The notes under the pieces: generated by a model
Database searches by the model: none
Told to the model about the DNA's origin: nothing
Seen by the model: only the letters and a program-made list of their open reading frames with translations
Made by a program: the position numbers and the translations under genes
Shown: positions 7,316-60,201 of the stretch, in pieces
Layout of the letters: each line of letters opens with the position of its first letter
Position numbering within the stretch: position 1 is the first letter of the stretch
Origin: Bacteroidaceae bacterium
GTDB taxonomy: Bacteria > Bacteroidota > Bacteroidia > Bacteroidales > Bacteroidaceae
NCBI GenBank assembly: GCA_016280855.1
Contig: JAEEHP010000105.1
Coordinates: 19,100-83,099 of the forward strand
Length of the DNA stretch: 64,000 bases
Direction: 5' to 3'

Positions 7316-7319
7316 TCTG

Positions 7320-7786: not shown

Positions 7787-10129
7787 ATGAAAAAACTATT
7801 CTCTACCGTTCTGATGCTGATGGTAGCAACCGTTATGTTTGCTGCACCCATCGGCCTGGATGAGGCCTTGCGCAAGGCTTCGGCTTTTATTGCTCAACAT
7901 CACCAGCACCAAGGCACCAAGGCGTTGAAGCCGGCACGTCGTCAGCCGGGCTTGAATGTGGCTGCCGTGGGTGGTGATTCCTATTTCTATGTCTTCAATG
8001 TAGGTCAGGACGAGGGCTTTGTCATCGTTAGTGGCGACGACCGTGCTGTGCCTATCTTGGGCTATGCCGATCATGGCAGCTTCGATGCCGCCGTCGTTCC
8101 GGCTCCTGTGCAAGCTTGGCTCGAGGGCTATGCCCGCCAGCTGCGCCGGCTGCAAGCCTCTGATGTGCAGGACAAGAGCCAGGCGCCCATTAACCGCTCG
8201 ACCATTGCGCCGTTGTTGACGATGCATTGGAACCAGAACGAGCCTTACAACAAGGATTGCCCCAAACTCCACACGGGGGCTTCAACGGTGACGGGCTGTG
8301 TGCCTACGGCTATGGCACAGTTGATGTACTACCATCGTTGGCCGGCCGCTACGACAGCCGCGATTCCTGGCTACGAAGGCAGCACGAATTGGGAGGACCA
8401 TGGTTCGCTCACCGTTGATGGCTTTCCTGCTGGCACGGCCTTCGAATGGGATAAGATGAAAGATGTCTATTCGGCTGAATTACCTGAAAATGAGGCTGAA
8501 CAAGCTGCCGCTCTCGAAGAGCAGAATGCTGTGGCGAAGCTCATGCGTGTCTGTGGCACGGCAGTGCAGGCCGACTATCGCGACAACGCGTCGGGAGGCA
8601 CTGGCGCAGAGGATGATATGGCCTGTGCGGCTTTCATCAAGTACTTCGACTATTCTGCGACGCTCCGTAAGGTGGTTCGTGACGACTATATGTACGCCGA
8701 CTGGCAGCAGCTGATCTATAGCGAACTGCAGGCTCGCCGTCCTGTCATCTACGGCGGTCAGTCGTCTGGCGGCGGCCATTTCTTCCTCGTCGATGGCTTC
8801 GAGAATGGGCTCTTCCATGTCAATTGGGGTTGGGGTGGTTTCTGCGACGGTTACTATGCCTTGTCGGTCGCTAACCCTGGCAGCAATGAGGGCGCCGGTG
8901 CCAGCGCTACGCTCGACGGCTATGGTCTCCAACAGGTGGCCATCATCGGCATAAAGAAGAACGAAGGCGAGCAGCCAACGGATATTCACATGAGTTCTGC
9001 CATCGTCGGCATTTCCGGAACATTCATCGGAGCCAGCTACTTTAATAAGAACTTCAGTACCTACAGTTTTGACTTCGGTCTCGGTTATGCTCAGCCCGAT
9101 GGCATCTATGTGCCGGTCGGCAGTTACTATACCTCCGATTCACCCTTGGATAAAGGTTGGGGTTACCCTAGCGAGACGCTTGAGGTTAAGGGTCTGGCGG
9201 ATGGCGTCTATCAGATTGTACCTATCAGCCGTGTCGTCGGTACGGAGAAGTGGTTGCCCAATGGTAATGTCAAGCGCGACTTCGTGAAGGCTACGGTCAG
9301 CGGTGGTCAGGTCACCTTGGAATGGAACCAGCCCAAGGTGGACTTGAAAGTCTCGGCCTTCGACTGTCCGGGTAAACATAAAATCGGTCGTCGTCAGGAG
9401 GTTAACGTCACGGTACAAAACCTTGGCGACGAGTACTATGGCCCGATCTACTTCTTCGTCGGCTCCGGCTCCACGGTGAAGTTGGTCGCTTACACGGGTA
9501 TCACCCTCGAAGCCAATGAGTCCGGCGCAACCACTTTCAGCTTCAATCCGGAGATTGTGGGAAATAACATCTTGGTCGTTTCCTTGGACAAGGAGTGTAC
9601 CAAGATTATCGGACAGGCCACGTTGAACATCAACCCGCAGGGCGAGACCGGCGAACACCTCAGCGTGAAGGCCTTCACCTTCGACAACGATAACACCACC
9701 GATTGGAGTGTGCCCGCATTCACGGGTAAGATCACGGTGAGCAACGCCGGCACCGAGGAGTTCGATGGCGAGATGTTCCTGCGGATCTATTACAACGTAG
9801 GGGCTCGCTTTGGCGAATTCTCGTTCTACAAGAACGTTTATTTTGAAGCTACTGTGCCTGCGGGTGCTACGGTGGACGTGCCCTTCATGGTCGAGGGCCT
9901 CACGCCAGGCACGTACTACTGGCCTATCGTGGCCGTGAACACGACGGCTCTTTGGGGGTCTGAAGGCGCAGGCATCCGTCGCTACGAGCCAGACATGGAT
10001 GGCGTTAAGGGAATTATGAATGATGAATTACGAATGAAGAATTCCATTTTCAATGTTGCCGGTCAGCGCCTTAGCGCACCGCAGAAAGGCATCATGATTG
10101 TGAATGGTAAGAAGGTCGTTGTTCGTTAA
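7787..10129 (+). CDS. C10 family cysteine peptidase (streptopain/interpain-like) with Spi-type prodomain and T9SS-like C-terminal tail
   Basis: Signal peptide; prodomain YFYVFNVGQDEGFVIVSGDDRAVPILGYAD; catalytic Cys TGCVPTAMAQLMYYHRWP; His GGGHFFLVDGF; NWGWGG; tail IFNVAGQRLSAPQKGIMIVNGKKVVVR. Confidence 0.85.
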   Translation: MKKLFSTVLMLMVATVMFAAPIGLDEALRKASAFIAQHHQHQGTKALKPARRQPGLNVAAVGGDSYFYVFNVGQDEGFVIVSGDDRAVPILGYADHGSFDAAVVPAPVQAWLEGYARQLRRLQASDVQDKSQAPINRSTIAPLLTMHWNQNEPYNKDCPKLHTGASTVTGCVPTAMAQLMYYHRWPAATTAAIPGYEGSTNWEDHGSLTVDGFPAGTAFEWDKMKDVYSAELPENEAEQAAALEEQNAVAKLMRVCGTAVQADYRDNASGGTGAEDDMACAAFIKYFDYSATLRKVVRDDYMYADWQQLIYSELQARRPVIYGGQSSGGGHFFLVDGFENGLFHVNWGWGGFCDGYYALSVANPGSNEGAGASATLDGYGLQQVAIIGIKKNEGEQPTDIHMSSAIVGISGTFIGASYFNKNFSTYSFDFGLGYAQPDGIYVPVGSYYTSDSPLDKGWGYPSETLEVKGLADGVYQIVPISRVVGTEKWLPNGNVKRDFVKATVSGGQVTLEWNQPKVDLKVSAFDCPGKHKIGRRQEVNVTVQNLGDEYYGPIYFFVGSGSTVKLVAYTGITLEANESGATTFSFNPEIVGNNILVVSLDKECTKIIGQATLNINPQGETGEHLSVKAFTFDNDNTTDWSVPAFTGKITVSNAGTEEFDGEMFLRIYYNVGARFGEFSFYKNVYFEATVPAGATVDVPFMVEGLTPGTYYWPIVAVNTTALWGSEGAGIRRYEPDMDGVKGIMNDELRMKNSIFNVAGQRLSAPQKGIMIVNGKKVVVR

Positions 10130-10148
10130 CGTAAGAAACATCATTATT

Positions 10149-11039
10149 ATGAAGAAACATAGTCTCAAGGATTGGATCCTGGCTACGCGTCCGTGGTCGT
10201 TCCCGGCATCTGCAATGCCCGTTGTTGTCACCATCATGTGGTCATGGGCTCATGGTATTCAAGTCAATTGGTGGTTTGCCCTTTGGGCTTTGGTCAACAT
10301 CATCTTCGTGCATGCCGCCGGTAATGTGTGGAGTGATATTGCTGACTATCGCAGCGGCGTCGATGCCGACGACACCTTCGGCGTGCGATCGCTGGTCGAT
10401 GGGCATTTCACCATCGAGGAGTTCAAGCGCCTGTCCATCACGCTGAACATCATCGCCATCCTGGGAGGCCTGGCACTCGTGAGCCTCACGGGTCTCACCT
10501 TATTATATATAGGTGTCGCTGGCATCCTGCTTTCGCTCTGCTATCCGCGTCTGAAGTATATGGCGCTGGGCGACGTGGTTATTGCGCTCTGCTACTCCAT
10601 CCTTCCCATGACCGGAACCTCTTTCATCATCTCTGGCTCCATCCATTGGCAAGTCCTATGGTTGGCCGTGCCGGTAGGACTGATCACCGTGGCCATCCTT
10701 CATGCCAACAATGTCCGTGATATCGAAACCGACAATCGGGCCCACATCCACACCTTCCCCATGTTCACGGGTCGTCGCTTCGGCGCTTGGCTTTATGCCG
10801 CCGAGGTTTTGGTACCCTTCCTGTGGCTCATTGGTCTGATGATTGCGCGCATCGAACCGTGGTGGCTCGGCGTCTCGTTCCTGGCTATGCCCGTGGCTGT
10901 GCAGAATGCCCGCACCATCTTGAACTACGAACGTGGTGGCAAGGAATCCTATGTCAACCTTGACGAACGCACGGCCAAGCTGCAGCTCATGTTCAGCCTC
11001 CTGCTCGTCCTCGGCTTCGTCCTCTCAAGAGTCCTTTGA
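10149..11039 (+). CDS. menA: 1,4-dihydroxy-2-naphthoate polyprenyltransferase (UbiA family)
   Basis: Polytopic membrane protein, WILATRPWSFPAS N-terminus, NxxxD-type prenyl-diphosphate motifs (NVWSDIADY, NNVRDIETD). The start is taken at MKKHSLKD; the upstream part of ORF 10104 overlaps the protease gene. Confidence 0.75.
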   Translation: MKKHSLKDWILATRPWSFPASAMPVVVTIMWSWAHGIQVNWWFALWALVNIIFVHAAGNVWSDIADYRSGVDADDTFGVRSLVDGHFTIEEFKRLSITLNIIAILGGLALVSLTGLTLLYIGVAGILLSLCYPRLKYMALGDVVIALCYSILPMTGTSFIISGSIHWQVLWLAVPVGLITVAILHANNVRDIETDNRAHIHTFPMFTGRRFGAWLYAAEVLVPFLWLIGLMIARIEPWWLGVSFLAMPVAVQNARTILNYERGGKESYVNLDERTAKLQLMFSLLLVLGFVLSRVL

Positions 11040-11068
11040 ACGTTTTCCCGCTCGGCGCTTGCGAATAA

Positions 11069-11102
11069 CTTTCAACTCTCAACTTTCAACTCTCAACTCT
11101 CC
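11069..11102 (+). repeat. heptamer word repeat (TCAACTY)n, G-free, abutting the start codon
   Basis: CTTTCAACTCTCAACTTTCAACTCTCAACTCTCC is followed directly by the ATG at 11103. Confidence 0.9.
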
Positions 11103-11711
11103 ATGAAACCTCTTGTTTCTTCCGTCGCTCTTGCGGCCGTCCTGTGGTTCGTGATGTTCTTCCCCTCTCTGGGTTTGGAGCTGAACTTCTGGGCGGTGAT
11201 GACTGTGGCTTCGCTCATGTTGACGACGTTGGCTATCGTCTTCGGCGGCTGGCCGCAGCTTCGTCCCGACTGGCGAGAGCTGTTGCTCGGCGCAGGCATT
11301 GCGGTAGTACTTTGGGGTGTCTTTTGGTTGGGCGACAAATGCTCTCAGCTGCTCTTCGACTTTGCCCGTCCCCAGGTCGATATGATCTACGGCATCAAGT
11401 CCGGCACTTCACCGTCGCTCATCGGCCTGTTGTTGCTGTTCATCATCGGCCCCGGCGAGGAGATTTTCTGGCGAGGCTATGTGCAGCGCCGTTTGTCCGA
11501 GCGCTGGTCGCCGAACGTGGGCTTCCTCGTGGCTACGGCAGCCTACACGCTCATCCATCTCTCCTCCTTGAATTTCATGCTCATCATGGCCGCTTTGGTC
11601 TGCGGCATTGCCTGGGGTGGTCTCTATCGCCTGTTCCCCAAGCACTTCACCGCCATCGTCGTCAGCCATGCCCTTTGGGATGCTGCCGCCTTCGTATGGT
11701 TCCCTCTTTAA
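11103..11711 (+). CDS. CPBP family intramembrane glutamic endopeptidase (CAAX/Abi-like)
   Basis: 202 aa, multi-TM, with motifs GPGEEIFWRGY and SHALWD. Confidence 0.8.
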   Translation: MKPLVSSVALAAVLWFVMFFPSLGLELNFWAVMTVASLMLTTLAIVFGGWPQLRPDWRELLLGAGIAVVLWGVFWLGDKCSQLLFDFARPQVDMIYGIKSGTSPSLIGLLLLFIIGPGEEIFWRGYVQRRLSERWSPNVGFLVATAAYTLIHLSSLNFMLIMAALVCGIAWGGLYRLFPKHFTAIVVSHALWDAAAFVWFPL

Positions 11712-11736
11712 CAACAAATCAATAAATCATAAGCTT

Positions 11737-14700
11737 ATGCGCAAATTTGTATCTCTATTCCTGTTGCTGATGGCATCGGCTGCGGTTTGGGCAGAGCCCA
11801 TCTCACGCGATGCTGCCCAGCAGTTGGCTCGCGACTTCCTCTCGCAGCGCAGCCCTCAGAACGCACGTCGCAGCATACGTGCTGCCCGAAACACGTTGGC
11901 GCTCAAGCCCGTGTCCACCGAGGCGTATTACTATGTCTTCAATGTCGGCGAAAGCCACGGTTTCGTCATCGTCAGCGGCGACGACCGTACAGAGCCGATC
12001 CTGGGCTATGCCGATGCCGGCACTTTCGACGAGCAGCACATGCCGTCGAACATGAAGGCGTGGCTGCAGGGCTATGCTGATGAACTGCGGTGGCTCGAAG
12101 TTCATCCCGGCTCCGCTCAGCACAGAGCACCGCGAATGGTCACCATCAAGAATGTCATTCATCCTTTGTTGGCTACGACATGGGATCAGGGCGAGCCGTA
12201 CAACGACGATTGTCCCCTTTTCCTAACCGGTAACCGGAGTGTCACAGGCTGTGTGGCCACGGCGATGGCGCAGGTGATGTACTACCACCAGTGGCCGGCT
12301 GCAACCACGAAGGAGATTCCGGCCTATCAATGTGAACGCAGTTGGGGAGGCAGTCATGTCTCCGTCGATGCCATCCCCGCTAACACCGCTTTCGACTGGA
12401 CTAACATGCAGCTCTCTTACGACGGTTCGGAAACTGCCGCACAGAAAAAGGCCGTCTCCACGCTGATGGCTGCCGTAGGCGCATCGGCCGAGATGGACTA
12501 TGCCGATTCCAGAAACAAAGGCTCCTCGGCCGCTCTCGCACTCTGCGACGATGCTTTGAAGACGTATTTCGACTATAGCGCCACCACCACTTATGTTGAT
12601 CGCGAGAACTATTATCTCGACGATTGGATGGAATTGCTCTACAACGAGCTCGCCCAATCCCGTCCCGTGCTCTATGGCGGTCAGTCGTCGGGCGGCGGTC
12701 ATGCTTTTGTCGTTGATGGCTACGACGGCGCAGGCAAGTTCCACATCAACTGGGGCTGGAACGGCTCGAACAACGGCTTCTTCCTCATCTCCGTGCTGAA
12801 TCCTTATAATAACACGGGTTCTGGAGCCAGCAGCTCCGAAGATGGTTACAGCTTCGGTCAGGAGGCCATCATCGGCATCAAGATGAACGAGGGCGAGACA
12901 ACGCCTCTCGTCAAGACACCGCCCATGCATGGCAACATCAGCGCCGTGAATGGCAATCAGGTGACCTTCAGTGCTTGGACTTCCTTGACGGAAACGGAAA
13001 CGTTTGACTTCGGCATAGGATATGTGGACCAGGACGGCACGGTGCATTATCTCACAGGATATGCAGGGCACCCTTTGAGCTTCGGTCATGGCTTCCCATC
13101 GGTGGACGTTGCTGTCAGCGGCCTTGCCGATGGCACCTACCATATTGTCGCCCTCTGCCGCATACACGGCACCGATGAGTGGATTCCCTACGTCAATGCC
13201 AATGTCAACTATGCCTTGGCGGTGGTCGCAGGTGGCTCCATCTCCTTGACGCTGGTTCCTGCTACGTCGTTGAATGTCACCTCTTTCACCCTGCCCGACA
13301 GCCCAAAGGCCGGCATCAGCCAGACCATCACGGCCCATGTCAACAACACCGCCGATGAATTCTATGGTGAGCTCTTCCTTTTTGCCAGCACTTCGGGTTC
13401 AATGGGTACTGCCGTCGCTTCTACGGGTTGCACCGTTCTAGCCGGCAAGACCTTCCCCGTGGAGCTCTTCTATGCCTTCCCTAACCCCGGTACCTATCAT
13501 CTTTGGGTGGCAACAGACAAAGACGGAACGAATGTCATCGGCGAGACATCGATCACCATCACCGGGACAGGCGCTGTGACCGACGACGTCGATCTTGCCT
13601 TCACGCGTGTCATCGCCCCGCTCTCTGCCGATGGAACAAAGCTGCTGAGCAATCGGGCCGAGGTCCAGTGGACAATCACCAACTCTTCCGACCAGAATTA
13701 TCAGGGTAAAGTATGCTTCTTTCTCTGGACATGGACAGGCGGAAGTACTAGAGGCGAAGGTCCTGTACATCAGATATCCGTGCCTGCTCATGGTTCCGTG
13801 ACGTGGACAGAGGTATTCACCGATCTACAATGGGACCAGGAATATTCTTTCACGGCAGAATATATGAAGAATAGTGATTATACAAATAATAAAACATATT
13901 TCTATGACATCTTTGCCCTTGTCCAAGCGGCGAGTTACTATCTTTCCGATGGCACGAAAGCCTTCGTCGAGCCTGCGGCCTCTATCGCCATACCTGTGGA
14001 TGCGACAGCTGTTGACCTTCGTGGTTGCAGCGGCATAACAGAAGTCACAGGCGGCAATCGCAATACGCTCTACTTCCTGGATGCCAGCAGTGCCGTCCCT
14101 GCGGGAGCTTCCTCGAACATCGTCCGCGATGGCGTCGCTGAGAACCTCGTCCTCAATGACGGCTACGACTTCGCCACGCCTTTTGCCTTCACGGCCAATA
14201 CCGCCACTTACGACCGCATGTTCTTGACCGGCTTCGACCGCAGCGGCAACGGTTGGAGCACCATCACGCTGCCCTTCGACGTCAACGGAGTCACGGTCAC
14301 CTGGAGTGGCAATGATTATCCCATCGACTGGTTCCGCAGCGGCGACGACACGGGCAAGAACTTCTGGATCATGCAGTTCGCTCGCGAGGAAAACGGCACC
14401 GTTTACTTCTCGCAGGCCGAGACCTTCAGGGCGGGTGTTCCTTACATCATCGCCGTGCCGGGTGCCGAGTGGGGCAATGGCGCTGATCTCACGGGTCTGC
14501 CGCTCCACTTCACGGCTTCCAACGTCGCCCTCTCTCCCGACTTCAAGGCGGCCAGCATGGGCTCCGTCTTCACGATGAAGGGCACAGTCGCCAGGGAAAA
14601 CGTGATGGGTGTCTATGTCCTCAACGACGAAGGCAACCACTTCCAGATGAATAATGCTGCCGTCGATGCCTTCAGAGCCTATTTCGCACCGACCACAAAC

Positions 14701-16837: not shown

Positions 16838-17074
16838 ATGGCAACAGCAACGTACATCCCCACACGGCCAGGCAGGCTAACCGTAGAATTCGAGGACATC
16901 AGCATGCTCCGGGACATCAAGAAAGCCATTAGCATGGTTCGCGGTGTCACAAAGGTTTCCGTTCCGCGAACTAAGCGATTGTCGTCCTATGAGCGTTCCC
17001 TTCGCGACCTTGACGAAGGTCGCGTATATGAATACGATAGTCTGGATGATCTTATCAAAGAGATAGAAGGATGA
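16838..17074 (+). CDS. putative antitoxin (78 aa) of the YafQ-type toxin
   Basis: A small acidic protein whose stop overlaps the toxin start (ATGA at 17071-17074). I recognise no named antitoxin motif. Confidence 0.55.
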   Translation: MATATYIPTRPGRLTVEFEDISMLRDIKKAISMVRGVTKVSVPRTKRLSSYERSLRDLDEGRVYEYDSLDDLIKEIEG

Positions 17075-17352
17075 GCACGAAGTACAAGCTGTGCATCACC
17101 GGTGAGTGCAAGCAGAACATGAAGCTATGTAAGCGACGTGGACTGCCTATGGACAAGTTGTGGACTGTCGTGGGTAAATTGCTCAATGGCGAGCAACTCG
17201 AAGAAAAGTACAAGGCCCATGTTCTGACAGGCAACCGTAAGGGACAATGGGAGTGCCACATCCAGCCTGACTGGCTCCTCATTTGGGAAATACGTAATCA
17301 AGAGCTTGTCCTTGTGCTCTTAAATTCGGGCACCCATTCAGACTTGTTCTAA
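17071..17352 (+). CDS. yafQ: type II toxin-antitoxin system YafQ family toxin (RelE/ParE superfamily mRNA interferase)
   Basis: 93 aa. ...HVLTGNRKGQWECHIQPDWLLIWEIRNQELVLVLLNSGTHSDLF matches the characteristic YafQ C-terminal pattern. Confidence 0.8.
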   Translation: MSTKYKLCITGECKQNMKLCKRRGLPMDKLWTVVGKLLNGEQLEEKYKAHVLTGNRKGQWECHIQPDWLLIWEIRNQELVLVLLNSGTHSDLF

Positions 17353-17442
17353 TACCCTCGGCACCCGATTTCCGGGCTTCGCCGAGGGCATTTTTGTGAT
17401 GCAATGTGTATTTTTGCATGTTATAAAAGATCAGCGAAGCTC

Positions 17443-17530
17443 ACCAAGGTTCTCCAAGCGAAATACCAAGGTTTTCCAGCCGAAACACCAAGGTGTTCCA
17501 AGCGTAACACCAAGGTGTTCCAACTTACCC
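17443..17530. repeat. tandem array, 4 x 22 bp (ACCAAGGTKYTCCARSCGAAAY)
   Basis: The ACCAAGGT anchor occurs at 17443, 17465, 17487 and 17509. Confidence 0.9.
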
Positions 17531-17532
17531 AC

Positions 17533-17664
17533 CTATGTTCTCGAGCTGACTCGCCTATGTATTCGAGCTGACTCGCCTATGTATTCGAGCTGACTCGCCT
17601 ATGCCTTCGAGCTGACTCGCCTATTCCTTCGAGCCGTCCCGGTTATACCTTCGAGCAGTCCCAC
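17533..17664. repeat. tandem array, 6 x 22 bp (CTATGYMTTCGAGCTGACTCGC)
   Basis: The TCGAGC anchor occurs at 17541, 17563, 17585, 17607, 17629 and 17651. The last two units are degenerate. Confidence 0.9.
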
Positions 17665-18541: not shown

Positions 18542-19560
18542 TGGCTAAGAAGGCAGGCATCAGTTATCAGGAGATCGTGCGTCAGGTGAGGGCAGGGCAG
18601 TTCAGCCCTATCTACTACCTGATGGGCGATGAGGCGTACTACATCGACCGCCTCTCGGAATATATCGTTGAGCAGGCGCTCAGCGAGGATCAGCGTGACT
18701 TCAACCTGACGATTCTCTATGGCCCGCAGACGACGGGCGAGGAAGTCGTCAATGCCGCCAAGCGCTACCCCATGATGGCGGAGCGTCAGGTGGTGGTGGT
18801 CCGTGAGGCGCAGAGCCTCCCTCATAAGGAGGTGCTGGCTTTCTACGCCCAGAAACCGATGCCTTCCACGGTGTTGGTGATGTGCCACAAAAATGGTACG
18901 TTAGACCGCCGTACGGGCCTTGCCAAGGACCTCGAGAAGGCTGGAATCGTCTTCGAATCGCGCAAACTTTACGACCGTGAACTGCCTGATTTCGCAAGCA
19001 GTTATGTGCGTCGTAAGGGCTCTGAGATTGCGCCAGAAGCGTGCCAGATCATCTGCGAATACGTAGGCGCGGATCTCAACCGCCTTTCGGGCGAGTTGGA
19101 CAAGCTGATCCTGGCCGTGGGCGAGGGGCGTCGCATCGATGCCCAAACCATACAGGACAATATCGGCATCAGCAAAGAGTTCAATTCCTTCGAGCTGGTG
19201 ACGGCGCTCTCGTTGAAGGATGTGATGAAGGCAAATCGCATAGTGAAATATTTTGATAGCAATCCTAAGAACTTTGCCCTGCAGCCGACGCTTGCCGTTC
19301 TCTTCAAATTCTACTCCGATCTGATGCTCGCATACTATGCTCCCCAGAAGACGGAGGAGGGTATTGCCGCCTGGCTCGAGCAGAGTGTGTGGCAGGTGAA
19401 GCGGAACATTATGCCGGCCATGAGAATCTATTCGGCGATGAAAGTGTATGAGATTATCGATCGAATACGCCGAACAGACGGTGCATCGAAGGGGGTAGGA
19501 GGTCAAAAAACGACCGATGGAGCCCTGTTGAAAGAGCTCGTTTTTTTCATTCTTCACTAA
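18535..19560 (+). CDS. holA: DNA polymerase III subunit delta
   Basis: 341 aa. QFSPIYYLMGDEAYYID..., a YGPQTTGEEVVNAAKRYPMMAERQVVVVREAQ segment, and delta-subunit length and layout. Confidence 0.8.
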   Translation: MVMAKKAGISYQEIVRQVRAGQFSPIYYLMGDEAYYIDRLSEYIVEQALSEDQRDFNLTILYGPQTTGEEVVNAAKRYPMMAERQVVVVREAQSLPHKEVLAFYAQKPMPSTVLVMCHKNGTLDRRTGLAKDLEKAGIVFESRKLYDRELPDFASSYVRRKGSEIAPEACQIICEYVGADLNRLSGELDKLILAVGEGRRIDAQTIQDNIGISKEFNSFELVTALSLKDVMKANRIVKYFDSNPKNFALQPTLAVLFKFYSDLMLAYYAPQKTEEGIAAWLEQSVWQVKRNIMPAMRIYSAMKVYEIIDRIRRTDGASKGVGGQKTTDGALLKELVFFILH

Positions 19561-19620
19561 TTTGTATCTATTTTGTCGGAAAATAGCTACAGAATATTTA
19601 GCCCTTATTGCACTTGAAAC

Positions 19621-19642
19621 AAGCCTCTTAGGAGGCTTTTTT
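19621..19642 (+). terminator. intrinsic terminator after holA
   Basis: AAGCCTC-TTAG-GAGGCTT followed by TTTT. Confidence 0.65.
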
Positions 19643-20310
19643 GTGCGCTGAGAATGGCTCGAAACGAAAGTCTCTCCGGACGTTCGAGCTTGTGCTTTTC
19701 GTGACCATTTTCGAGCGGCAAGGTTCGACTTTACGTTTGTTGACATTTTGAGAGATAAATGACGGTCAAAGAACTAAACGCGCGAATTTAAAAACGTAAA
19801 CAAACCGAGGGCCGTTCTGATTTGTGAATAGGAATTTCATTTCCGTGAATTTACAATTCGAATACGCGAATATGCAGATTTGAATATATGAATGAGTGAA
19901 TATTTATATCCATATACCATTGTAATACCCATTAAATCAACGAAAAACAAAGATGTATACACGTATATTCACGATATGTATGTCAATATTCTGGAATATC
20001 ATGCGCTCGGAAATGATTTCTGGGTTGTTGGTGTGATTTATATTGTTTATAACCATTGATATACGGGATTTGGTTTAAGCGGTTTCTTTAAGGAATACAG
20101 TAATGTAACCATTTAGTTTTGTGTTTCTAAACACGAACACGTGAACACCTGTGTTTGTATTTGTGTACTACCACTTTTTGAACAGTGAGAAAAATAAATT
20201 TTAAAGATTTTGCTCTTAAAATTTGGAAGTTAAAACAAAATTCATTTACTTTGCAGCGTCAAAGTGATAAATGCTATATAAAGGACAGTAAAATATAAGG
20301 AGTTTCGTCA

Positions 20311-20778
20311 ATGAAAGAACGCATACGTCAGATCCAGGAATTGCAGCGGATGTCTCAGCGCGAGTTCGCAGCAGCCCTTGGAATTTCTCCTTCTTCGCTG
20401 TCGAGCATCTACAATGGCCATACGTCACCGACCAATAATCAAGTGCAGGCCATCCATCGTCGCTTCCCTGAGATCAACACCGACTGGTTGTTGTTTGGTG
20501 ACGGCGATATGGTTCGCATGAGTCAGGATAGTCAAACAGGTTCGTCGGGAGATGACGATGAGAGCGAAGGCGTTCGCTCAGCTGACTCCCCTGCATCGCA
20601 GGCAATCAGCAATCCCGATGGCGACTCGATACAACACCCCGTGTCAGAAAGTGCTTTGCCCAACCAAGTAATCATCCGCGAGACGGTGAAATATGTTGAC
20701 AAGCCGCAACGTAAGATAACAGAGATTCGTGTCTTCTACGACGATGGAACATTCGACACGTTCTCCGGGTCACGGTGA
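20311..20778 (+). CDS. XRE-family helix-turn-helix protein
   Basis: N-terminal HTH (MSQREFAAALGISPSSLSSIYNG), a Ser/Asp-rich linker, and the conserved tail ITEIRVFYDDGTFDTF. Confidence 0.7.
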   Translation: MKERIRQIQELQRMSQREFAAALGISPSSLSSIYNGHTSPTNNQVQAIHRRFPEINTDWLLFGDGDMVRMSQDSQTGSSGDDDESEGVRSADSPASQAISNPDGDSIQHPVSESALPNQVIIRETVKYVDKPQRKITEIRVFYDDGTFDTFSGSR

Positions 20779-20898
20779 TTGACGAGGGGTCTTTATTCAC
20801 TTTATCATTAGAATCATCCTTTATTCATATTTCACTTTTACCCAAGAATGCTGGCCGCAACCTCTCTTTTCTACTCCTTATTTTCTGAGCGGCCAAAA

Positions 20899-20938
20899 GG
20901 GGGCTTAACCCGTGAGGGCGCGAGCTCCCCTTTTTTTT
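20899..20938 (+). terminator. GC hairpin plus T8 tract (terminator-like) downstream of the HTH gene
   Basis: GGGGGCTTAACCC-GTGA-GGGCGCGAGCTCCCC followed by TTTTTTTT. Confidence 0.55.
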
Positions 20939-20987
20939 AGATAAGGGCGAGAGTTGGAGGCGCGCGAATACGCGCTACACCCAACCA

Positions 20988-21080
20988 GCGGCAGAGGATT
21001 AGCGGAAGGCTACCTCGACCTGCGGCAAGCATTAACGGAAGGCTACCTCGACCTGCGGCAGAGGATGAGCGGAAGTTTGG
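20988..21080. repeat. tandem repeat, about 2.7 x 33-34 bp (GCGGCARAGSATKARCGGAAGGCTACCTCGACCT)
   Basis: The GCGGCA anchor occurs at 20988, 21022 and 21055, directly upstream of pyrK. Confidence 0.85.
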
Positions 21081-33833: not shown

Positions 33834-34283
33834 ATGGAAATCTCTGGTAAGATTACTTATGTGTTGCCTGAACGCGGCGGCGTATCGCAGCGCTCCGGCA
33901 GTGAGTGGAAGGTAGCATCCTATGTCATCGAAACTTTCGAACAGTATCCCAAGAAGTGTTGCTTCGAGGTCTTCGGTTCCGATCGTATCGCTCAGTTCAA
34001 CATTCAGGTAGGGCAGCAGCTCACCGTCAGCGTCGATATTGATGCCCACGAGTACAACGGCCGCTGGTACAATCAGATCCGCGCCTGGAAGGTAGCTCCC
34101 TACGACCCGAATGCTGTGGCTGCTCCTGCCGCAGATCCCGCCGCAGCTATTCCTCCTGCCGCTCCCGAAGCTCCCTTCCCCCCTGCACAGCCGGTAGCAC
34201 CCTCGCCCGCTGATGCTGCAGCACCGGCTGCTCCTGCTGCTCCCGCCTTCGGAGGCGAAAGCACCGACGACCTGCCCTTCTAA
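33834..34283 (+). CDS. DUF3127-like protein with Ala/Pro-rich tail
   Basis: MEISGKITYVLPERGGVSQRSGSEWKVASYVIET...NGRWYNQIRAWKV is an OB-like DUF3127 pattern. It is followed by an (A/P)-rich tail ending DDLPF. Confidence 0.65.
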   Translation: MEISGKITYVLPERGGVSQRSGSEWKVASYVIETFEQYPKKCCFEVFGSDRIAQFNIQVGQQLTVSVDIDAHEYNGRWYNQIRAWKVAPYDPNAVAAPAADPAAAIPPAAPEAPFPPAQPVAPSPADAAAPAAPAAPAFGGESTDDLPF

Positions 34284-34362
34284 TCATTTTCATCCTTTGC
34301 GATCTGCGCCCCCATGCCTTTTTTACGGGTGCATTAAGCTGCAAAGTGACTCTCCCCCAAAA

Positions 34363-34405
34363 AGCCGACGAACTGCTGAAAATCAGTTACGTCGGCTCTT
34401 CTTTT
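34363..34405 (+). terminator. intrinsic terminator after the DUF3127 gene
   Basis: AGCCGACGAACTG / loop / CAGTTACGTCGGCT followed by CTTCTTTTC. Confidence 0.6.
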
Positions 34406-34418
34406 CATGACTGCTTAA

Positions 34419-34506
34419 CACACGTATAGACGTAGGAGGTCACACGTATAGACGTAGGAGGTCACACGTATAGACGTAGAGCCTTGCACGTATAGACGTC
34501 GAAGGC
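34419..34506. repeat. tandem array, 4 x 22 bp (CACACGTATAGACGTAGGAGGT)
   Basis: Units at 34419, 34441, 34463 and 34485. The core ACGTATAGACGT is the reverse complement of the core of the 7228-7315 array. Confidence 0.9.
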
Positions 34507-34542
34507 TGAGCGACGGGACGTGTGCGCGGCCTCTTTCTGAAG

Positions 34543-34921
34543 CTTCGGGGAAAGCTTATATGGAGCGGGGGAAGTAGGAAAGTAAGAAAGTAGGAAAGTA
34601 GACATTAAGGGTTTTCGGGGGCGCGAATCAGCATCAACAACGGCAGGGTGCAGTAATTTTCAGAGGACGACTAGAAGCAGCATATATCACTATATATTTA
34701 TATGAATAATAATAATTATAAAGGAATAATTATATGGTTATATATAATACTAATATTATAAAGTTATTATTATATAATACTATTATTATTAAATAATTAT
34801 ATAATAAATATTATACTCGTTTCCCTGTTTTGTGTATGTTCCCTTCTGTGGAGCAAAAATGCTTAATGTCTACTTTCCTACTTTCCTACTTTCTTACTTT
34901 TCTGCCTTCAGCTTTCCGAAG
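34543..34921. repeat. composite inverted-repeat element with an extreme A/T core
   Basis: Left arm 34543-34609 (CTTCGGGGAAAGCT...GAAGTAGGAAAGTAAGAAAGTAGGAAAGTAGACATTAAG) pairs with right arm 34862-34921 (CTTAATGTCTACTTTCCTACTTTCCTACTTTCTTACTTT...AGCTTTCCGAAG). The core 34682-34817 is almost pure A/T. Confidence 0.85.
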
Positions 34922-34957
34922 GTCATTGAAAATGTTCGATCCTTGCTTTCGGCGATG

Positions 34958-35494
34958 CTACTTCCTGCTTTCCGCTGTTGTCTCTTCGTCTTCGCAACCT
35001 GCGGCGCGCAGGATCAGGGTGGTGGCGCCGATATTGATGATGGTGCCGTCGTCGATGCGGAGTCGGTCATTGGCGCGGAGTAGGGTGGTGCCGACGCAGG
35101 TGCCGGTGCCGTCGGTGCTGGCATCGCGAAGCGTGTAGATGAATTCGCCCTGGCGGTTGCGACGGACGTTGATGACGCAATGGGTCGTATCAACGCTGGG
35201 ATCGGTGGTTTCGATAGGCGTATTGATGCTTGTGCCGCGAACGTATCGCCCGATGACGTTATCTCCCATGCGCAGGGGCAGTATTTGCTTGTAGTGGAAG
35301 ACGTTTTCGATGACGATGATTGCGCCGCAGTCCTCTTCCTCCTGAGGCTTCTGCTCTTGGCTTGGAACGTTGATGCGAACGCCGAACTGCCGTTGGCATT
35401 GAGGACATTGGAACACTAAAGTTTGACCTTCGGCGTAGGGTGTTTCGTCGAAGGTCAAGTCATAATCACATTTGGGGCATCTGACGCGTTTCAT
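34958..35494 (-). CDS. FHA domain protein with N-terminal zinc-ribbon
   Basis: CPKC...CPQC zinc ribbon, then an FHA-like region (NVIGRY...HCVINV...GTCVGTTLL...IDDGTIINIG). The start is MKRVRCPKC; 35509 is the alternative. Confidence 0.7.
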   Translation of the reverse strand: MKRVRCPKCDYDLTFDETPYAEGQTLVFQCPQCQRQFGVRINVPSQEQKPQEEEDCGAIIVIENVFHYKQILPLRMGDNVIGRYVRGTSINTPIETTDPSVDTTHCVINVRRNRQGEFIYTLRDASTDGTGTCVGTTLLRANDRLRIDDGTIINIGATTLILRAAGCEDEETTAESRK

Positions 35495-36513
35495 AGTTTC
35501 AAAACCCAAGCTGCAGCGTAGTCGCCGCCGAGGAGATGTAGTTGGTGTGCGAGGTTTGCGGCGTCGGTTTCCGTGGCCAGGCCGTCGATGACGACGCGCA
35601 GCATTTTCCCGTTGTCGTGGACGCGTGCGTTAGCGTAGCCCATATCCTGCAAGCGCTGTACGAAGGCATCGGCATTCTTGCGCGAGACTTGGCTGGCAAG
35701 GACGACGGCATAGGAGGCTTCTTGGGCGGTCTTCTCTTCGATGGCCTTTTCTTCAACAGCCTTCTCTTCGGCGGCTGTAGCGTTTTGCGCTGTCGGGATT
35801 TCTTCGTTGACGAGAGCGTCTGTGGCTGCCGGCTGTTCCTCGGCTTTTGTTTGCTGGGTGTTCTCCACCTTGGGCGACGAGGAGAAGACTGACGCCTGCC
35901 CGCCTTTAACGTCGCTCATCTGGAAGGGTGACGTGAAAATGACACAAATGATGGCGATGGCAGCAGCGGCAGCGACGTTACGAAGTGTGCGGCGGCTGAT
36001 GCGAATGGTGATGTCATCGTTGTGGCGGAAGGGACGCACCGCTGTGTTGTGGTGAGCATGAGTGTTCGATGCTGCGGCATGCGGCATGCGGTTTGCGAGG
36101 CGCGGCATCGTGAATGCGTCGAGGCCATAGTAGCGGGGCGTGGTCACTCCGGCCTGGCAGGAGGAGAAGGAGATCTGTCCGTCGTCGTCCTGCGTGAAGA
36201 CACCGATGGTGCCGAAGTCCACCTGCCCGTCGGCCAACAGTTGGCTGCGCAGGTCGAGCACCATGGCTTGTGTGGCGCGTTTGGCCTCGGAGAGCGAGCT
36301 GTTCTGCTCCTGACGAACGGCTTCGACAAGGAGAAGGTCGTCCTGCACGAGATCGGGATTAAAGCGCACGAGTCGCGAAGGGGGGAAGAAGATGTTCTCC
36401 TGCTCGGAGCGTGTGGCAGCACTCTCGTGAACCACAAACGCACCAAAATGAGGCACTACGACGCAGTCGTGGTGCAGCAGAAGACGTTCGATATGTAAAG
36501 AAAGTGCTTTCAT
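35491..36513 (-). CDS. HU-like N-terminal domain / C-terminal SPOR domain protein
   Basis: N-terminus HDCVVVPHFGAFVV (HU-CCDC81-like), a TM segment, and a C-terminal SPOR domain (YAVVLASQVSRKNADAFVQRLQDMGY). The start at MKALS is supported by a promoter box 6 nt upstream. Confidence 0.7.
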   Translation of the reverse strand: MKALSLHIERLLLHHDCVVVPHFGAFVVHESAATRSEQENIFFPPSRLVRFNPDLVQDDLLLVEAVRQEQNSSLSEAKRATQAMVLDLRSQLLADGQVDFGTIGVFTQDDDGQISFSSCQAGVTTPRYYGLDAFTMPRLANRMPHAAASNTHAHHNTAVRPFRHNDDITIRISRRTLRNVAAAAAIAIICVIFTSPFQMSDVKGGQASVFSSSPKVENTQQTKAEEQPAATDALVNEEIPTAQNATAAEEKAVEEKAIEEKTAQEASYAVVLASQVSRKNADAFVQRLQDMGYANARVHDNGKMLRVVIDGLATETDAANLAHQLHLLGGDYAAAWVLKL

Positions 36514-44286: not shown

Positions 44287-45201
44287 ATGAAGCCTCGTTT
44301 TTTAGTCTTTTTTGTAACCTTTTTCGTTGTAACGGCACTCTTTGGGCAGTCGCGACAGTCTGTTCAGTGGCGTTACATTGAGAACTATAAGGATATGGCC
44401 ATCGATCAGATGCGTCGCTACCAGATTCCGGCATCCATCACCCTTGCCCAGGGCTTGTGCGAGAGTGGGGCAGGGCAGAGCCGTCTGGCCGTCGTGGCGC
44501 ACAACCATTTCGGCATCAAGGTAGGGTCGAACTGGACGGGACCGTACATTATCCAAAGCGACGACCGTCCCGACGACCGCTTCCGCAAATACAGCACCGA
44601 CGACGAGAGCTTCGAGGATCATTCCAAGTTCCTGCGCTACGGTCAGCGCTACCGGTCGCTCTTCAACCTCAAGCTGACCGATTACCGCGGTTGGGCTCAC
44701 GGCCTGCAGCGCTGCGGCTACGCCACCAATCCCTCCTACGCCAAGATGCTCATCGACATCATCGAGCGCTATAACCTCCACCAGTTCGACTCCAGCACCA
44801 GTGGTCGCTACCGCTCGCGCACGTCCTCGGCTTCCGACAGCGACGATTTCTATGCCCAGCACATCGTCTATCGCATCAACAAGACGTACATGGTCATTGC
44901 CATCGCTGGCGACACCTGGGAGAAGATTTCGCGCGAGACGGGTGTCAGCGTACGCAAGCTCCTCAAATACAACGAACGGCCCAAGGACTCGCGGCTCGCC
45001 ATCGGCGACATCGTCTATCTCCAGAAGAAACGCACCAAGGCCGACGAGAGTCTCAAAGGCGTGCCGCACGTCGTGCAGCCCGGCGAGTCGCTCTACGACA
45101 TCGCCCAGCACTACGCCGTCCGACTCAAGAACATCTACAAACTCAATGCCCTCGATGCCGACTATGTCCCCATTCCCGGCGATCTCATCTGGCTGAGATA
45201 A
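44287..45201 (+). CDS. N-acetylglucosaminidase (GH73/FlgJ-like) with two LysM domains
   Basis: ASITLAQGLCESGAGQSRLAVVAHNHFGIK (glucosaminidase motif), followed by two LysM-like segments (YRINKTYM...; HVVQPGESLYDIAQHY). Confidence 0.8.
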   Translation: MKPRFLVFFVTFFVVTALFGQSRQSVQWRYIENYKDMAIDQMRRYQIPASITLAQGLCESGAGQSRLAVVAHNHFGIKVGSNWTGPYIIQSDDRPDDRFRKYSTDDESFEDHSKFLRYGQRYRSLFNLKLTDYRGWAHGLQRCGYATNPSYAKMLIDIIERYNLHQFDSSTSGRYRSRTSSASDSDDFYAQHIVYRINKTYMVIAIAGDTWEKISRETGVSVRKLLKYNERPKDSRLAIGDIVYLQKKRTKADESLKGVPHVVQPGESLYDIAQHYAVRLKNIYKLNALDADYVPIPGDLIWLR

Positions 45202-45284
45202 CTTTCAACTCTCAACTCTCAAGTTACTTTTATTTTTCACTTTTCACTTTTCACTTTTCACTCTCAACTCTCAACTCCCCTCCC
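45202..45284 (+). repeat. heptamer word repeats (TCAACTC)n and (CACTTTT)n, nearly G-free (one G), abutting the ettA start codon
   Basis: CTTTCAACTCTCAACTCTCAAGTTACTTTTATTTTTCACTTTTCACTTTTCACTTTTCACTCTCAACTCTCAACTCCCCTCCC is followed by the ATG at 45285. Confidence 0.9.
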
Positions 45285-46970: not shown

Positions 46971-47005
46971 TCCGCTCTCAACTTTCAACTTTCAAATCTT
47001 CAATC
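46971..47005 (+). repeat. heptamer word repeat (TCAACTT)n abutting the start codon
   Basis: TCCGCTCTCAACTTTCAACTTTCAAATCTTCAATC is followed by the ATG at 47006. Confidence 0.9.
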
Positions 47006-55135: not shown

Positions 55136-55708
55136 ATGCTCATGAAAAAGATTTTTGTTGTGGCCGTCCTGTTGCTCGCAGCCCTGTCGGGGTCGGCACA
55201 GGAGAAGGTAATGACCGTCCAGAAGAAGGACGGGACGAGCGCCGGCACGCGTGTGGCTGACGTGAAGGAGATCAGTTTCCTCGCTGTGGAAGCCGGCAGC
55301 CAGGGCGTGCTGGTGAAGACGCAGAGCGGCGAGACGGCGGCCGTGCGCTTCGAGGCGAATCCCGTCGTGACCGTCGCCAACGGTAAGCTGAACGTCAGGT
55401 CGAGCGATGCCGATGCTATAGCGTTCGAAATCAGCGACGTCGCGGAAATCCTCTTCGGCGATGCTTCCGAAGGCACGGCCATCAAGGCACCCGAAGGGTT
55501 GGCCTTTGTCGTGCAGGAGGGCGGCGCGCTGCTGCGAGGCATACCAAAGGGCGTGAAGCCGCGCATCTATACGATGGACGGCCGCAGTCTGCCGACGCCT
55601 CCGCTGCAAGGTGACGAACTGCGACTGAACCGCGCTACCATGGGCGCTGGCATCTTTATCGTGAAGGTGGGCTCGTTCGCTACGAAGATCAGAGTGGGGA
55701 GAGATTAG
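55136..55708 (+). CDS. small secreted protein with T9SS-like C-terminal tail
   Basis: Signal MLMKKIFVVAVLLLAALSGSAQ and C-terminal IYTMDGRSL...GIFIVKVGSFATKIRVGRD. I recognise no catalytic motif. Confidence 0.55.
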   Translation: MLMKKIFVVAVLLLAALSGSAQEKVMTVQKKDGTSAGTRVADVKEISFLAVEAGSQGVLVKTQSGETAAVRFEANPVVTVANGKLNVRSSDADAIAFEISDVAEILFGDASEGTAIKAPEGLAFVVQEGGALLRGIPKGVKPRIYTMDGRSLPTPPLQGDELRLNRATMGAGIFIVKVGSFATKIRVGRD

Positions 55709-55750
55709 AGATGAGAGATTAGAGATTAAAGATTAGAGATAAGAGATTGC
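55695..55750 (+). repeat. heptamer word repeat (GAGATTA)n, C-free
   Basis: GAGAGATTAGAGATGAGAGATTAGAGATTAAAGATTAGAGATAAGAGATT spans the stop of the upstream gene and the leader of the next gene. Confidence 0.85.
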
Positions 55751-58501: not shown

Positions 58502-58554
58502 CGCTTGTCAACTCGTCAACTTGTCAACTCGTCAACTATCAACTTTCAACTCCC
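58502..58554 (+). repeat. octamer/heptamer word repeat (GTCAACTY)n abutting the start codon
   Basis: CGCTTGTCAACTCGTCAACTTGTCAACTCGTCAACTATCAACTTTCAACTCCC is followed by the ATG at 58555. Confidence 0.9.
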
Positions 58555-58743
58555 ATGGCACAGCATCAATGTGAGAACTGTAAGTTCAGAGCTTACCACG
58601 ACAAGAACCCGAAGTCGCTGCTGGGACGCTTCTGGCGGTGGCACATCAACTTCTGCCCCGGCTGGAAGGCTTATTTCACCAGTCAGGACGACGGGAAGAA
58701 AGCCCAGCTCAGGGCACAGTACAACTTCACGAAGTATCAGTAG
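58555..58743 (+). CDS. small conserved Cys-containing protein (62 aa)
   Basis: MAQHQCENCKFRAYHDKNPKSLLGRFWRWHINFCPGWKAYF... I recall similar small proteins in Bacteroidota but know no family name. Confidence 0.5.
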   Translation: MAQHQCENCKFRAYHDKNPKSLLGRFWRWHINFCPGWKAYFTSQDDGKKAQLRAQYNFTKYQ

Positions 58744-59388: not shown

Positions 59389-59406
59389 GAAAGCGCTTGA
59401 TTCCCC

Positions 59407-59639
59407 TACTTCGGCTGCAAGCACAGTCGGTACTCGCTGGGCGATAGGCCGAGGTGCTTGGTGCAGTAGCGGCTGAAGTAGGAGAGGGAGGTGAAATGCA
59501 TGCGGTCGGCTATCTGGGTGAGCGACAGACGTTCGTCATCCAGATAGCTTTTTATTATAGGTATGGTGTGGCGGTCGATGTAGGAGGTGACGCTGTGCCC
59601 CGTGACGCGCTTGATGGTGGTATGACTGTATGCAGACCG
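59407..59639 (-). pseudogene. AraC-family regulator, C-terminal HTH fragment only (5'-truncated)
   Basis: Hand translation of the minus strand gives ...TTIKRVTGHSVTSYIDRHTIPIIKSYLDDERLSLTQIADRMHFTSLSYFSRYCTKHLGLSPSEYRLCLQPK*. There is no upstream ORF or start, and the frame ends in the GAACGAAC repeat arm. Confidence 0.7.
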
Positions 59640-59907
59640 AACAGCGAACGAACGAACAGTTGTTTGTGTTCGGTTATGAAGGGCGACTAATTGTTCAATA
59701 ATATATATTATATATAATATATATTATTGGCTTATCCATCCGATGACATTTCTATTTGTTCGCTTCTATTTGTTCGCTGTTCGTTCGTTCGCTGTTCGTT
59801 CGTTCGCTGTTCGGGTAAGGGTGAAGGAGCAGGCGAACATCAAAACGGCAAGCAACGAACGAACGAACAACGAACGGAACAACGAGCAACGAACGAACGG
59901 AACGTGG
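59637..59907. repeat. composite inverted-repeat element with a perfect 34-bp A/T palindrome
   Basis: Arm CCGAACAGCGAACGAACGAACAG (59637-59659) has an exact reverse complement at 59792-59814. The palindrome CAATAATATATATTATATATAATATATATTATTG lies at 59696-59729. A third, same-sense GAACGAAC-rich arm lies at 59851-59904. Confidence 0.9.
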
Positions 59908-60016
59908 TACGGCAATGGCTGCGGCATTCATGGACAATGAAAAGCCCTACCTGAAAAAAGAGCCTCGCGCCGCCCCGCTTTTTTCAAAACCTATTGCAAG
60001 CGCCAAGGAATAGTCG

Positions 60017-60024
60017 TACCTTTG
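60017..60024 (+). promoter_or_regulatory. orphan -7 promoter box (CGTACCTTTGCAAC context) with no downstream ORF
   Basis: Same extended context as the boxes at 7745, 15719 and 62777. The next plus-strand gene is more than 1.2 kb away, beyond a convergent araC gene. Confidence 0.4.
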
Positions 60025-60060
60025 CAACGTTGAAAGAAGAGAGCAGGCAAAGCCCGCTGA

Positions 60061-60094
60061 GCGAATAGACGCAGTCGCGAATGCGAATAGACGC
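60061..60094. repeat. direct repeat, 2 x 22-bp period (GCGAATAGACGC core)
   Basis: GCGAATAGACGC occurs at 60061 and 60083. Confidence 0.8.
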
Positions 60095-60201
60095 TCAAGC
60101 CCGCGCGACTGGTCGCAGTGCGCAATGCGACTGCTCGCTTGAAAGAAAAGCCTCACCCCCAAACCCCTCTCCAAAAGGCGCGCCCTACGCTACTCAACAT
60201 G

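Follow-up and report, generated by a model that had tools for sequence, protein, structure and literature searches.

Bacterial MITEs are described as elements of less than 500 bp that are A/T-rich, intergenic and non-coding, that end in inverted repeats, occur in many dispersed copies and are predicted to give stem-loop transcripts (PMC10969869), and large computational catalogues of them exist for the Bacteroidota (PMC11602168). One example, BrickBuilt of Porphyromonas gingivalis, consists of a 23-nt minisatellite between a leader and a tail, is present in about 19 copies with variable unit numbers, is associated with promoters, and has 12-nt, IS5-family-like TIRs (GAGACCTTTGCA) (PMC4596501). 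Here we consider an intergenic inverted-repeat element of ~340-380 bp, at 34543-34921 of a 64 kb stretch of chromosomal DNA from an uncultured rumen Bacteroidales bacterium (the whole stretch analysed, hereafter the window; 55.8% GC overall). Like a MITE, it is small, has inverted ends, is A/T-rich, intergenic and non-coding, and belongs to a set of many copies. Unlike typical MITEs, whose TIRs measure 4-30 nt, it has arms of 40-60 nt that are built from tandem octamers in variable number, a tandem array travels with one side, and neither a TSD nor a parent transposase was identified. BrickBuilt is the closest published relative in kind (PMC4596501), being likewise a Bacteroidales intergenic repeat with inverted ends and a minisatellite of similar unit (23 nt there, 21-22 nt here), though its minisatellite is internal, whereas here the array lies outside one arm and the A/T core is central; the two have no sequence similarity, and no IS was found that matches the arms.

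Our preferred reading, to which we would give a probability of roughly 55%, is that the window element is a solitary, non-coding member of a family of repeats dispersed among rumen Prevotellaceae-like Bacteroidales, non-autonomous and MITE- or foldback-like. Looser parallels to such a repeat are found elsewhere. The BOX elements of Streptococcus pneumoniae and the Correia elements of Neisseria are modular foldback repeats with a variable internal module that influence the expression of neighbouring genes and often lie near promoters or terminators, and Correia elements additionally show TA duplications and an IHF site. Any resemblance to these would be by analogy, as they come from different phyla and have different sequences, and BOX has no A/T core. 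In the foldback (FB) transposons of Drosophila, a variable centre is enclosed by long inverted arms that repeat short words in tandem, and in arm design they may be seen as analogous, though they are eukaryotic and far larger, with nothing to indicate a common mechanism.

The element lies in a spacer of 674 bp (34284-34957) between a DUF3127 gene and an FHA-domain gene, which face each other as the initial annotation had stated. The upstream neighbours are dnaN, an RNase T-type exonuclease gene and coaBC, and downstream lie an HU-CCDC81/SPOR gene and an AddA-like helicase gene. In genome collections the closest relatives come from cattle, sheep, deer and buffalo, as MAGs that carry the label Prevotellaceae or Bacteroidaceae. 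Reading the spacer from left to right, a hairpin is followed by a 22-bp array, the left arm, a G+C-rich segment, the A/T core, a short segment and the right arm:

33834-34283, plus strand: DUF3127 gene, the product of which has an SSB-like DDLPF tail at its C-terminus
34360-34405, no strand: hairpin with flanking A-run and T-run, outside the repeat family
34419-34505, plus strand: tandem array of ~3.7-4 copies of a 22-bp unit (CACACGTATAGACGTAGGAGGT), the copy number varying between strains
34543-34568, no strand: outer extension of the left arm (CTTCGGGGAAAGCT...), pairing with 34903-34921 and unique to the window copy (no homology in other family copies)
34569-34609, plus strand: left arm, four GGAAAGTA-type octamers and then the box GACATTAAG
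34610-34677, no strand: left subterminal segment, G+C-rich and mostly copy-specific
34678-34826, no strand: A/T core of degenerate tandem units (periods 8, 14 and 30), non-coding
34827-34861, no strand: right subterminal segment, containing a patch sharply divergent among strains of the same species
34862-34902, minus strand: right arm, four octamers and GACATTAAG in minus-strand reading
34903-34921, no strand: outer extension of the right arm (AGCTTTCCGAAG), pairing with 34543-34556
34958-35509, minus strand: FHA-domain gene

A repeat search pairs the arms without gaps over 44 nt (34572-34615 with 34856-34899; 91% complementary, 240 nt apart), and folding extends the pairing, with small indels, to ~34543 and 34921, i.e. 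to ~60 nt. Treated as single-stranded DNA, the region has a folding energy of -62.9 kcal/mol (z -8.0); for the minus strand as RNA the value is -110.7 kcal/mol (z -8.4), and in both cases 0 of 100 shuffles do as well. The word GGAAAGTAGGAAAGTA, when up to 3 mismatches are allowed, is matched six times in place of the 0.22 expected, always within the two arms, and TRF reports a period of 8 with 3.8-3.9 copies per arm. The core, at 149 bp, is the largest A/T island of the window (defined as ≤15% GC in 40-nt windows) and 2.5 times the size of the runner-up, a 58-bp island at 59683-59740 within a second element at 59637-59907. Arms that pair with small indels, their construction from octamers and a nearly pure A/T centre had all been proposed from reading the letters alone, and these measurements agree on each point. 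Part of the left subterminal segment (AGAGGAC...TAGAAG, within 34610-34677) resembles a subterminal motif found in other copies, GAGACATTATAAGTAGAAG. In some contigs an 83-aa ORF is predicted at 34832-35083, which we consider spurious as it overlaps the FHA gene in antisense and has no Pfam match. C-type extrusion of a cruciform over 250 nt of spacer would be improbable without prior melting of the A/T core, and such melting is plausible under supercoiling; cruciform or unwinding behaviour, as the initial annotation had suggested, would be physically plausible.

With dnaN only 1 kb away, gene orientation diverging around 33.7-36.6 kb and the largest A/T tract of the window at its centre, the element might be taken for a chromosomal replication origin or a DnaA-dependent unwinding element, a reading that we find exceedingly unlikely. 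There is no DnaA box (TTATCCACA, ≤1 mismatch) within 5 kb and the window as a whole has 3 where 8 are expected, the GC skew of the window tracks gene strand rather than replication, and the element is multi-copy and missing from syntenic relatives.

For the species itself we used metagenome contigs encoding an identical DUF3127 protein, 10 of which were returned and nine of which span the spacer. The element is present in all nine, at the same position and in the same orientation, and they differ by SNPs, one 22-mer unit (the array has 3 or 4 units depending on strain), small indels and one divergent patch right of the core (alignment columns 526-568, which set L001 and L004 apart from the rest); one further metagenome contig has a left arm short of one octamer. 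Between strains, the copy numbers of both the octamer and the 22-mer drift by slippage. The picture is different at syntenic loci of other species, where the FHA protein is 63%-76% identical to that of the window. At seven of them (L012, L013, L014, L019, L020, L028 and L103, the last matched by its sibling contigs L104 and L105) the two genes are separated by ~30-60 bp, and in the four spacers that were read (L012, L013, L028 and L103) a plain hairpin stands alone; the eighth (L021) carries a different, 630-bp repeat-rich filler. Set against the 674 bp here, the ~30-60 bp of the seven relatives mean that ~600 bp were gained at the window locus, and the element was added to the spacer in the lineage of the window's species. 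The comparison across strains had been suggested at the outset, with the argument that strict conservation of sequence and position across distant species would mark a fixed structural site; what emerges is a block kept in all nine spanning contigs of one species and missing from all eight syntenic relatives. No empty allele was seen among the nine contigs, nor was a precise empty site found.

The hairpin to the left of the element probably served the convergent genes originally as a terminator for both directions, since the depth of RNA-library contigs is 0 there (34340-34403, in four runs) and a similar lone hairpin is found in L012, L013, L028 and L103. The initial annotation had called a good terminator at 34363-34405; the site does have an 11-nt GC-rich inverted repeat (34360-34370 and 34390-34400) with A- and T-runs, though a consensus scan with loops of up to 8 nt returned nothing. 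RNA-library contigs also cover 34522-34848 at a depth similar to that of the flanking genes (four runs; the libraries are unstranded and may include DNA). Coverage of the element together with zero depth at the hairpin fits read-through from the FHA operon ending at the old hairpin, and the element is likely transcribed as the tail of that operon up to the old terminator. It would add an RNA hairpin of ~60 bp, or an unwinding-prone spot in the DNA, and would lengthen the 3′ region common to the convergent genes.

Could the element then act as a structured RNA, a long 3′-UTR hairpin or a small RNA with a role in stabilising or terminating the transcript of the FHA operon? The very stable pairing of the arms in the minus-strand fold and RNA-library contigs over the element that fall to zero depth at the old terminator would suit this, but we think it unlikely. 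Rfam 15 gives nothing at gathering score in the window and nothing at E≤1 for 34250-35000, and on eight other family loci it finds tRNA and RNase P and nothing else. The longest ORF is 47 aa within the element and 20 aa within the core, and the core is hypervariable. The core thus holds no conserved small ORF or RNA, a finding that the initial annotation had named as one that would explain the element otherwise. Most copies lie upstream of outward-facing promoters, so that they would not be transcribed from those, and sequence conservation is seen in both arms, which makes pairing indistinguishable from sequence constraint.

A genome-wide search for arm-core-arm structures had also been proposed. 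An exact 24-nt pattern taken from the left arm has matches in 43 rumen metagenome contigs, which fall into roughly 20-25 flanking contexts when grouped by shared flanks. In DNA metagenomes the arms have 5-20x the depth of their flanks (a contig depth that pools species), many other contigs share the words of the right arm, and other contigs leave the arm into different A/T sequence. We measured 22 complete copies, with inner lengths of 92-252 nt, an inner GC of 19-33% and A/T cores of 54-152 nt, the window copy being the longest among them. In their layout, an arm (2-9 octamers and then GACATTAAG) is followed by a short T-rich stretch, the A/T core and an inverted arm, with a subterminal motif of type GAGACATTATAAGTAGAAG ahead of the inverted arm on one side. 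The cores are hypervariable and mutually unrelated, the arms are conserved, and the copies have no ORF. The window copy is homologous to others over 34564-34615 and ~34700-34905; its left interior and the outer extensions of its arms are unique to it. The similarity of the two arms is 0.77 within one copy compared to 0.79 between copies, which indicates that the arms are under a family-wide sequence constraint rather than one of pairing or local conversion; concerted evolution between a copy's own arms was not seen.

Neighbouring genes of the family copies are diverse (L19, BspA-LRR, GH28, ThuA, toxin-antitoxin pairs, restriction-modification genes and HU-HIG). An array of 19-23-bp period lies directly outside one arm at 15 or more of the 22 loci; its words vary by locus, are of few types and in many cases contain a short palindrome, and the core word of the unit CACACGTATAGACGTAGGAGGT is arrayed once more at 7228-7307 in the window. 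An outward-firing promoter motif is found 40-90 nt outside one arm at 18 of the 22 loci, and on the other side at 14 of the 22. The window copy has the array and lacks flanking promoters. Such non-random arrays and outward promoters fit a regulatory module as well as a mobile one. Homology between loci extends ~10 nt past one arm and, array included, ~90 nt past the other, and the pairs L059/L060, L064/L082 and L065/L085 share ~90 nt of array.

Collections of plasmids and phages yielded no arm matches; the 22-bp array alone was matched there, in two records of Phocaeicola massiliensis. One IMG/VR contig contains a compact copy, though the viral nature of that contig is doubtful. At L072 the sequence diverges within the core into what appears to be another element, and at L087 the core continues into more than 1.4 kb of eukaryote-like DNA of ~20% GC. 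The latter might be thought an insertion hot spot in the core, and is most likely an assembly chimera formed via low-complexity A/T words.

Invertons are well known in Bacteroides, and inverted repeats around 240 bp in a Bacteroidales genome do share their geometry. A Bacteroidales-type invertible promoter switch is nonetheless very unlikely here. The TAnnTTTG promoter, used across the 64 kb, occurs 0 times in 34284-34957 compared to 32 times elsewhere in the window, and a single internal orientation relative to the flanks is seen in the nine strain contigs and in all paired family loci, as assembled. Moreover, both neighbouring genes point at the element and no recombinase gene lies nearby.

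A further explanation is a local origin without mobility, in which slippage and copying by fold-back would have produced the element in a lineage prone to building word-based inverted repeats. The window is full of arrays of 7-8-bp words and of 22-bp arrays, the copy numbers of the units vary between strains, and unrelated word-built inverted repeats do occur. One is the element at 59637-59907, with 23-nt arms of GAACGAAC-type tandem words that are 100% complementary, a perfect 34-nt A/T palindrome at its centre and one more inverted pair. The strain contigs L110 and L108, the flanks of which are otherwise 94-98% identical, lack an 813-bp block (59391-60203) that contains this element; the block starts with the end of an AraC paralogue (its last ~75 codons), and the repeat begins where this fragment is cut. 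The initial annotation saw the same design in both elements, and this is right as far as word-built arms around an A/T centre go, but the two have no sequence in common and the arms at 59637-59907 are at single-copy depth in metagenomes, for which reasons it is not a member of the GGAAAGTA family. Only for that family is multi-copy status demonstrated. A second instance, again of different words, is an inverted repeat (GAGGTGA)n...(TCACCTC)n downstream of HU-HIG in L116. These two examples make inverted repeats of short tandem words look like a habit of the lineage. For the element as a whole we nevertheless hold a local origin to be improbable, since it leaves unexplained why identical arms of 24-40 nt and shared subterminal motifs stand at ~20-25 unrelated loci; it is largely refuted for the arms, whereas the A/T core, the outer arm extension and the 59637-59907 element may have arisen in this way.

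Among the three roles offered initially (cruciform formation or unwinding, nucleoid-protein binding or recombination, and a non-autonomous mobile element), we favour the last, because the block is missing in eight syntenic relatives and the same arms stand at many unrelated loci. Against it we count the lack of a target-site duplication at the outer arm boundaries of the window copy, L059, L060, L061 and L066, the lack of an empty allele within the species and of a transposase or integrase in the cargo islands described below, and the arms themselves, the outermost parts of which are octamers in variable number, odd for transposon termini. A protein-binding or recombination site gains some support from the family-wide conservation of the arms and from a lone arm at the edge of these islands.

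In five independent chromosomal contexts (L060/L101, L064, L116/L117, L120 and L121) the same module is part of an island of 7-10 kb. The order there is an HU-HIG gene transcribed away from the module, its leader and promoter, a 21-22-bp array, arm-core-arm, a promoter, variable cargo, two to four conserved small ORFs, the gene for a conserved protein of 859-876 aa (hereafter the 862-aa protein), and a lone arm that begins 2-13 nt after the stop codon of that gene. The module thus sits in a divergent promoter region. The cargo includes NTP-transferase/HEPN, DUF4160, an M15 peptidase and restriction-modification systems of the MmeI, HaeIII or BanI type. Homology between islands ends a few nt past the box of the lone arm and, at the opposite end, inside the HU-HIG gene, beyond which no second arm or box was found; what L064 and L060 have in common runs precisely from one arm to the lone arm. 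HU-HIG genes are on the array side in seven distinct family loci, and their proteins are 32-51% identical to one another while the arms are nearly identical. These proteins have been proposed to act against invading DNA (PMC5499826), which fits their placement beside defence cargo. The 862-aa protein has a weak match to a BT4734-like N-terminal domain (24 bits, cut-off 22.4), no match among PDB sequences or PHROGs, and 934 homologues at E≤1e-30 in rumen data, the best 120 of which are 83-97% identical. Searches of the islands with Pfam, NCBIfam and PHROGs revealed no transposase or integrase. The 64 kb window contains neither a homologue of the 862-aa protein nor an HU-HIG gene, and island genes are likewise missing beside L059, L061, L063, L065, L067, L078, L084, L085 and others, that is, beside most family copies.

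The islands suggest another explanation, namely that the module is primarily a cis site of theirs, either an octamer-iteron origin with an A/T unwinding region, for which the lone arm would be a second site, or an attachment or recombination site, and that the window copy is a relic or orphan that does not move by itself. We regard this as possible, if on the doubtful side. Module and lone arm bracket the cargo and the 862-aa gene, with its putative BT4734-like (primase-polymerase-type) N-terminal domain, in all five contexts; the unit shared by L064 and L060 is bounded by direct arm repeats; the high conservation of the 862-aa protein among its best homologues parallels that of the arms; and an A/T core with inverted short repeats and 22-bp arrays has an origin-like layout. 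But most family copies have no island genes alongside, simple recombination between direct arms would leave one arm and not arm-core-arm, and the 862-aa protein, with its weak domain match and no PDB or PHROG match, has no homologue in the window.

A similar arrangement is known from phage P4, where ori and crr, two separate octamer-repeat sites, flank the alpha primase-helicase gene, and where an A/T-rich region and variable defence cargo are found. At the level of the island the likeness would be one of analogy (octamers at two sites around a large primase-type gene, an A/T region and defence cargo), and it is qualified by the absence of a recognised integrase in the islands, the weak domain match of the 862-aa protein and the lack of such a gene near the window copy. 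Somewhat more speculatively than for the cis site as such, module and lone arm might together be the cis-acting machinery of an undescribed class of cargo island, abundant in rumen Prevotellaceae and without a recognisable integrase, in which the module would be an octamer-iteron origin or recombination site and the solitary copies satellites using the island protein in trans; we mention this as a tentative extension.

Under the preferred reading of a solitary, non-autonomous copy, each family unit has two inverted arms, made of 2-9 GGAAAGTA-type octamers with GACATTAAG at the end, and between them a short subterminal segment and a hypervariable A/T core; an array of 21-22-bp period usually lies directly outside one of the arms. 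The arms may be recognition repeats for a trans-acting protein encoded elsewhere, candidates being the BT4734-like 862-aa protein or the HU-HIG protein of the islands, and the easily melted, flexible core could let both arms come together. Solitary copies would then be non-autonomous derivatives, copied or moved by the machinery of the islands much as a MITE relies on its parent. The window copy itself is probably inert, with no dedicated function.

Uncultured rumen Prevotellaceae are among the most abundant microbes of livestock, and their mobile DNA is poorly charted. The 24-nt arm word provides a sequence handle for dozens of intergenic elements and for a recurrent island of 7-10 kb, found by means of that word, in which variable restriction-modification and toxin-antitoxin cargo lies beside fast-evolving HU-HIG genes. 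For annotation, spacers of this kind are to be read as repeat insertions rather than as genes or origins. Short-read assemblies break at them, and chimeric contigs can be seeded by their A/T cores. The main interest is in the family as such and in its connection with an abundant cargo island that has no recognisable integrase: should the 862-aa protein prove to bind the arms, the way in which the islands are maintained or moved would be defined, and this would explain the accumulation of gene-less copies such as the one described here.

The island of which the lone arm is the terminal part is 7-10 kb in length, and recurs across different chromosomal contexts in other rumen contigs. It combines an HU-HIG gene, the arm-core-arm module, conserved small ORFs and a BT4734-like protein of 859-876 aa with a variable cargo, either restriction-modification or toxin-antitoxin, and none of the five copies contains a recognisable integrase:

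L060 1516-8487, island copy
L064 486-10210, island copy
L116 ~3018-12625, island copy
L120 ~3516-12635, island copy
L121 ~3513-12636, island copy

The HU-HIG genes have a conserved leader, approximately GCGGGAAGCGGCCACCCGATGYAGCTGGTCGC ... TAATACCATAAAA, that separates the promoter from the start codon and for which we found no matching Rfam family:

L076 ~520-750, HU-HIG leader
L083 ~3790-3925, HU-HIG leader
L095 ~1670-1800, HU-HIG leader
L116 3627-3700, HU-HIG leader
L120 4074-4150, HU-HIG leader
L121 4341-4415, HU-HIG leader

Just 3′ of the HU-HIG stop codon, L116 has a tandem-word inverted repeat, (GAGGTGA)n ... (TCACCTC)n, at ~2870-2990, and the equivalent place in L120 holds word arrays of the CCTTCCTC type.

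In the window, many short spacers are filled with tandem words of 7-8 bp that often run right up to a start codon. The spacer words (AACTCTC, ACTTTTC, TTCAACT, GTCAACTC, AGAGATT and ATGAATG) resemble the arm octamer of the element, TACTTTCC. Tandems of this kind lie at:

3736-3861
11067-11101
45200-45284
46975-47005
55700-55748
58504-58555
61121-61146

A second type of repeat has an exact period of 22 bp and forms five tandem arrays within the 64-kb window:

3740-3789, 22-bp-period array
7228-7307, 22-bp-period array
17442-17523, 22-bp-period array
17532-17656, 22-bp-period array
34419-34499, 22-bp-period array, beside the element

The arrays at 7228-7307 and 34419-34499 have a core word in common, in opposite orientations. 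The former follows a minus-strand TAnnTTTG promoter (~7327) and precedes the start of an RlmN-like gene, which places it in the leader of that gene. A related 22-bp array is carried by Phocaeicola massiliensis (OY726041.1). Two of the five arrays adjoin a toxin-antitoxin pair (16838-17352) with a YafQ-type toxin.

At the element itself, two contigs of the same species, L001 and L004, have a sharply different patch of ~40 bp just right of the A/T core (window 34810-34850; columns 526-568 of A1, the alignment containing this spacer), with the remaining spacer nearly identical. In another contig, L087 (1-1460), the A/T core gives way to eukaryotic-looking DNA (rumen fungus or ciliate) of ~20% GC and over 1.4 kb in length; low-complexity A/T words have probably led to a chimeric assembly here.

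Strains also differ in an 813-bp block (59391-60203), which is shared with some of them and missing in contigs L110 and L108. Inside it lie:

59404-59630, minus strand, 3′ fragment of an AraC paralogue
inverted repeat of GAACGAAC words with a 34-nt A/T palindrome
60017, plus strand, strong promoter motif GTCGTACCTTTGCAACG

No ORF lies downstream of this promoter motif ahead of the convergent AraC gene. The region 60017-60200 contains GCGAATAGACGC repeats, reaches a contig depth of up to ~590 in metagenomes at 60150-60183, and may correspond to a small RNA or to a further multi-copy repeat. A foreign origin is possible for the low-GC (~45%) stretch at 19000-21000, in which 20311-20778 encodes an HTH_3 regulator.

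The DUF3127 protein encoded beside the element (33834-34283) has the C-terminal end ...STDDLPF, which resembles the acidic SSB tip, and a replisome role is hinted at by the position of its gene beside dnaN and an exonuclease gene.
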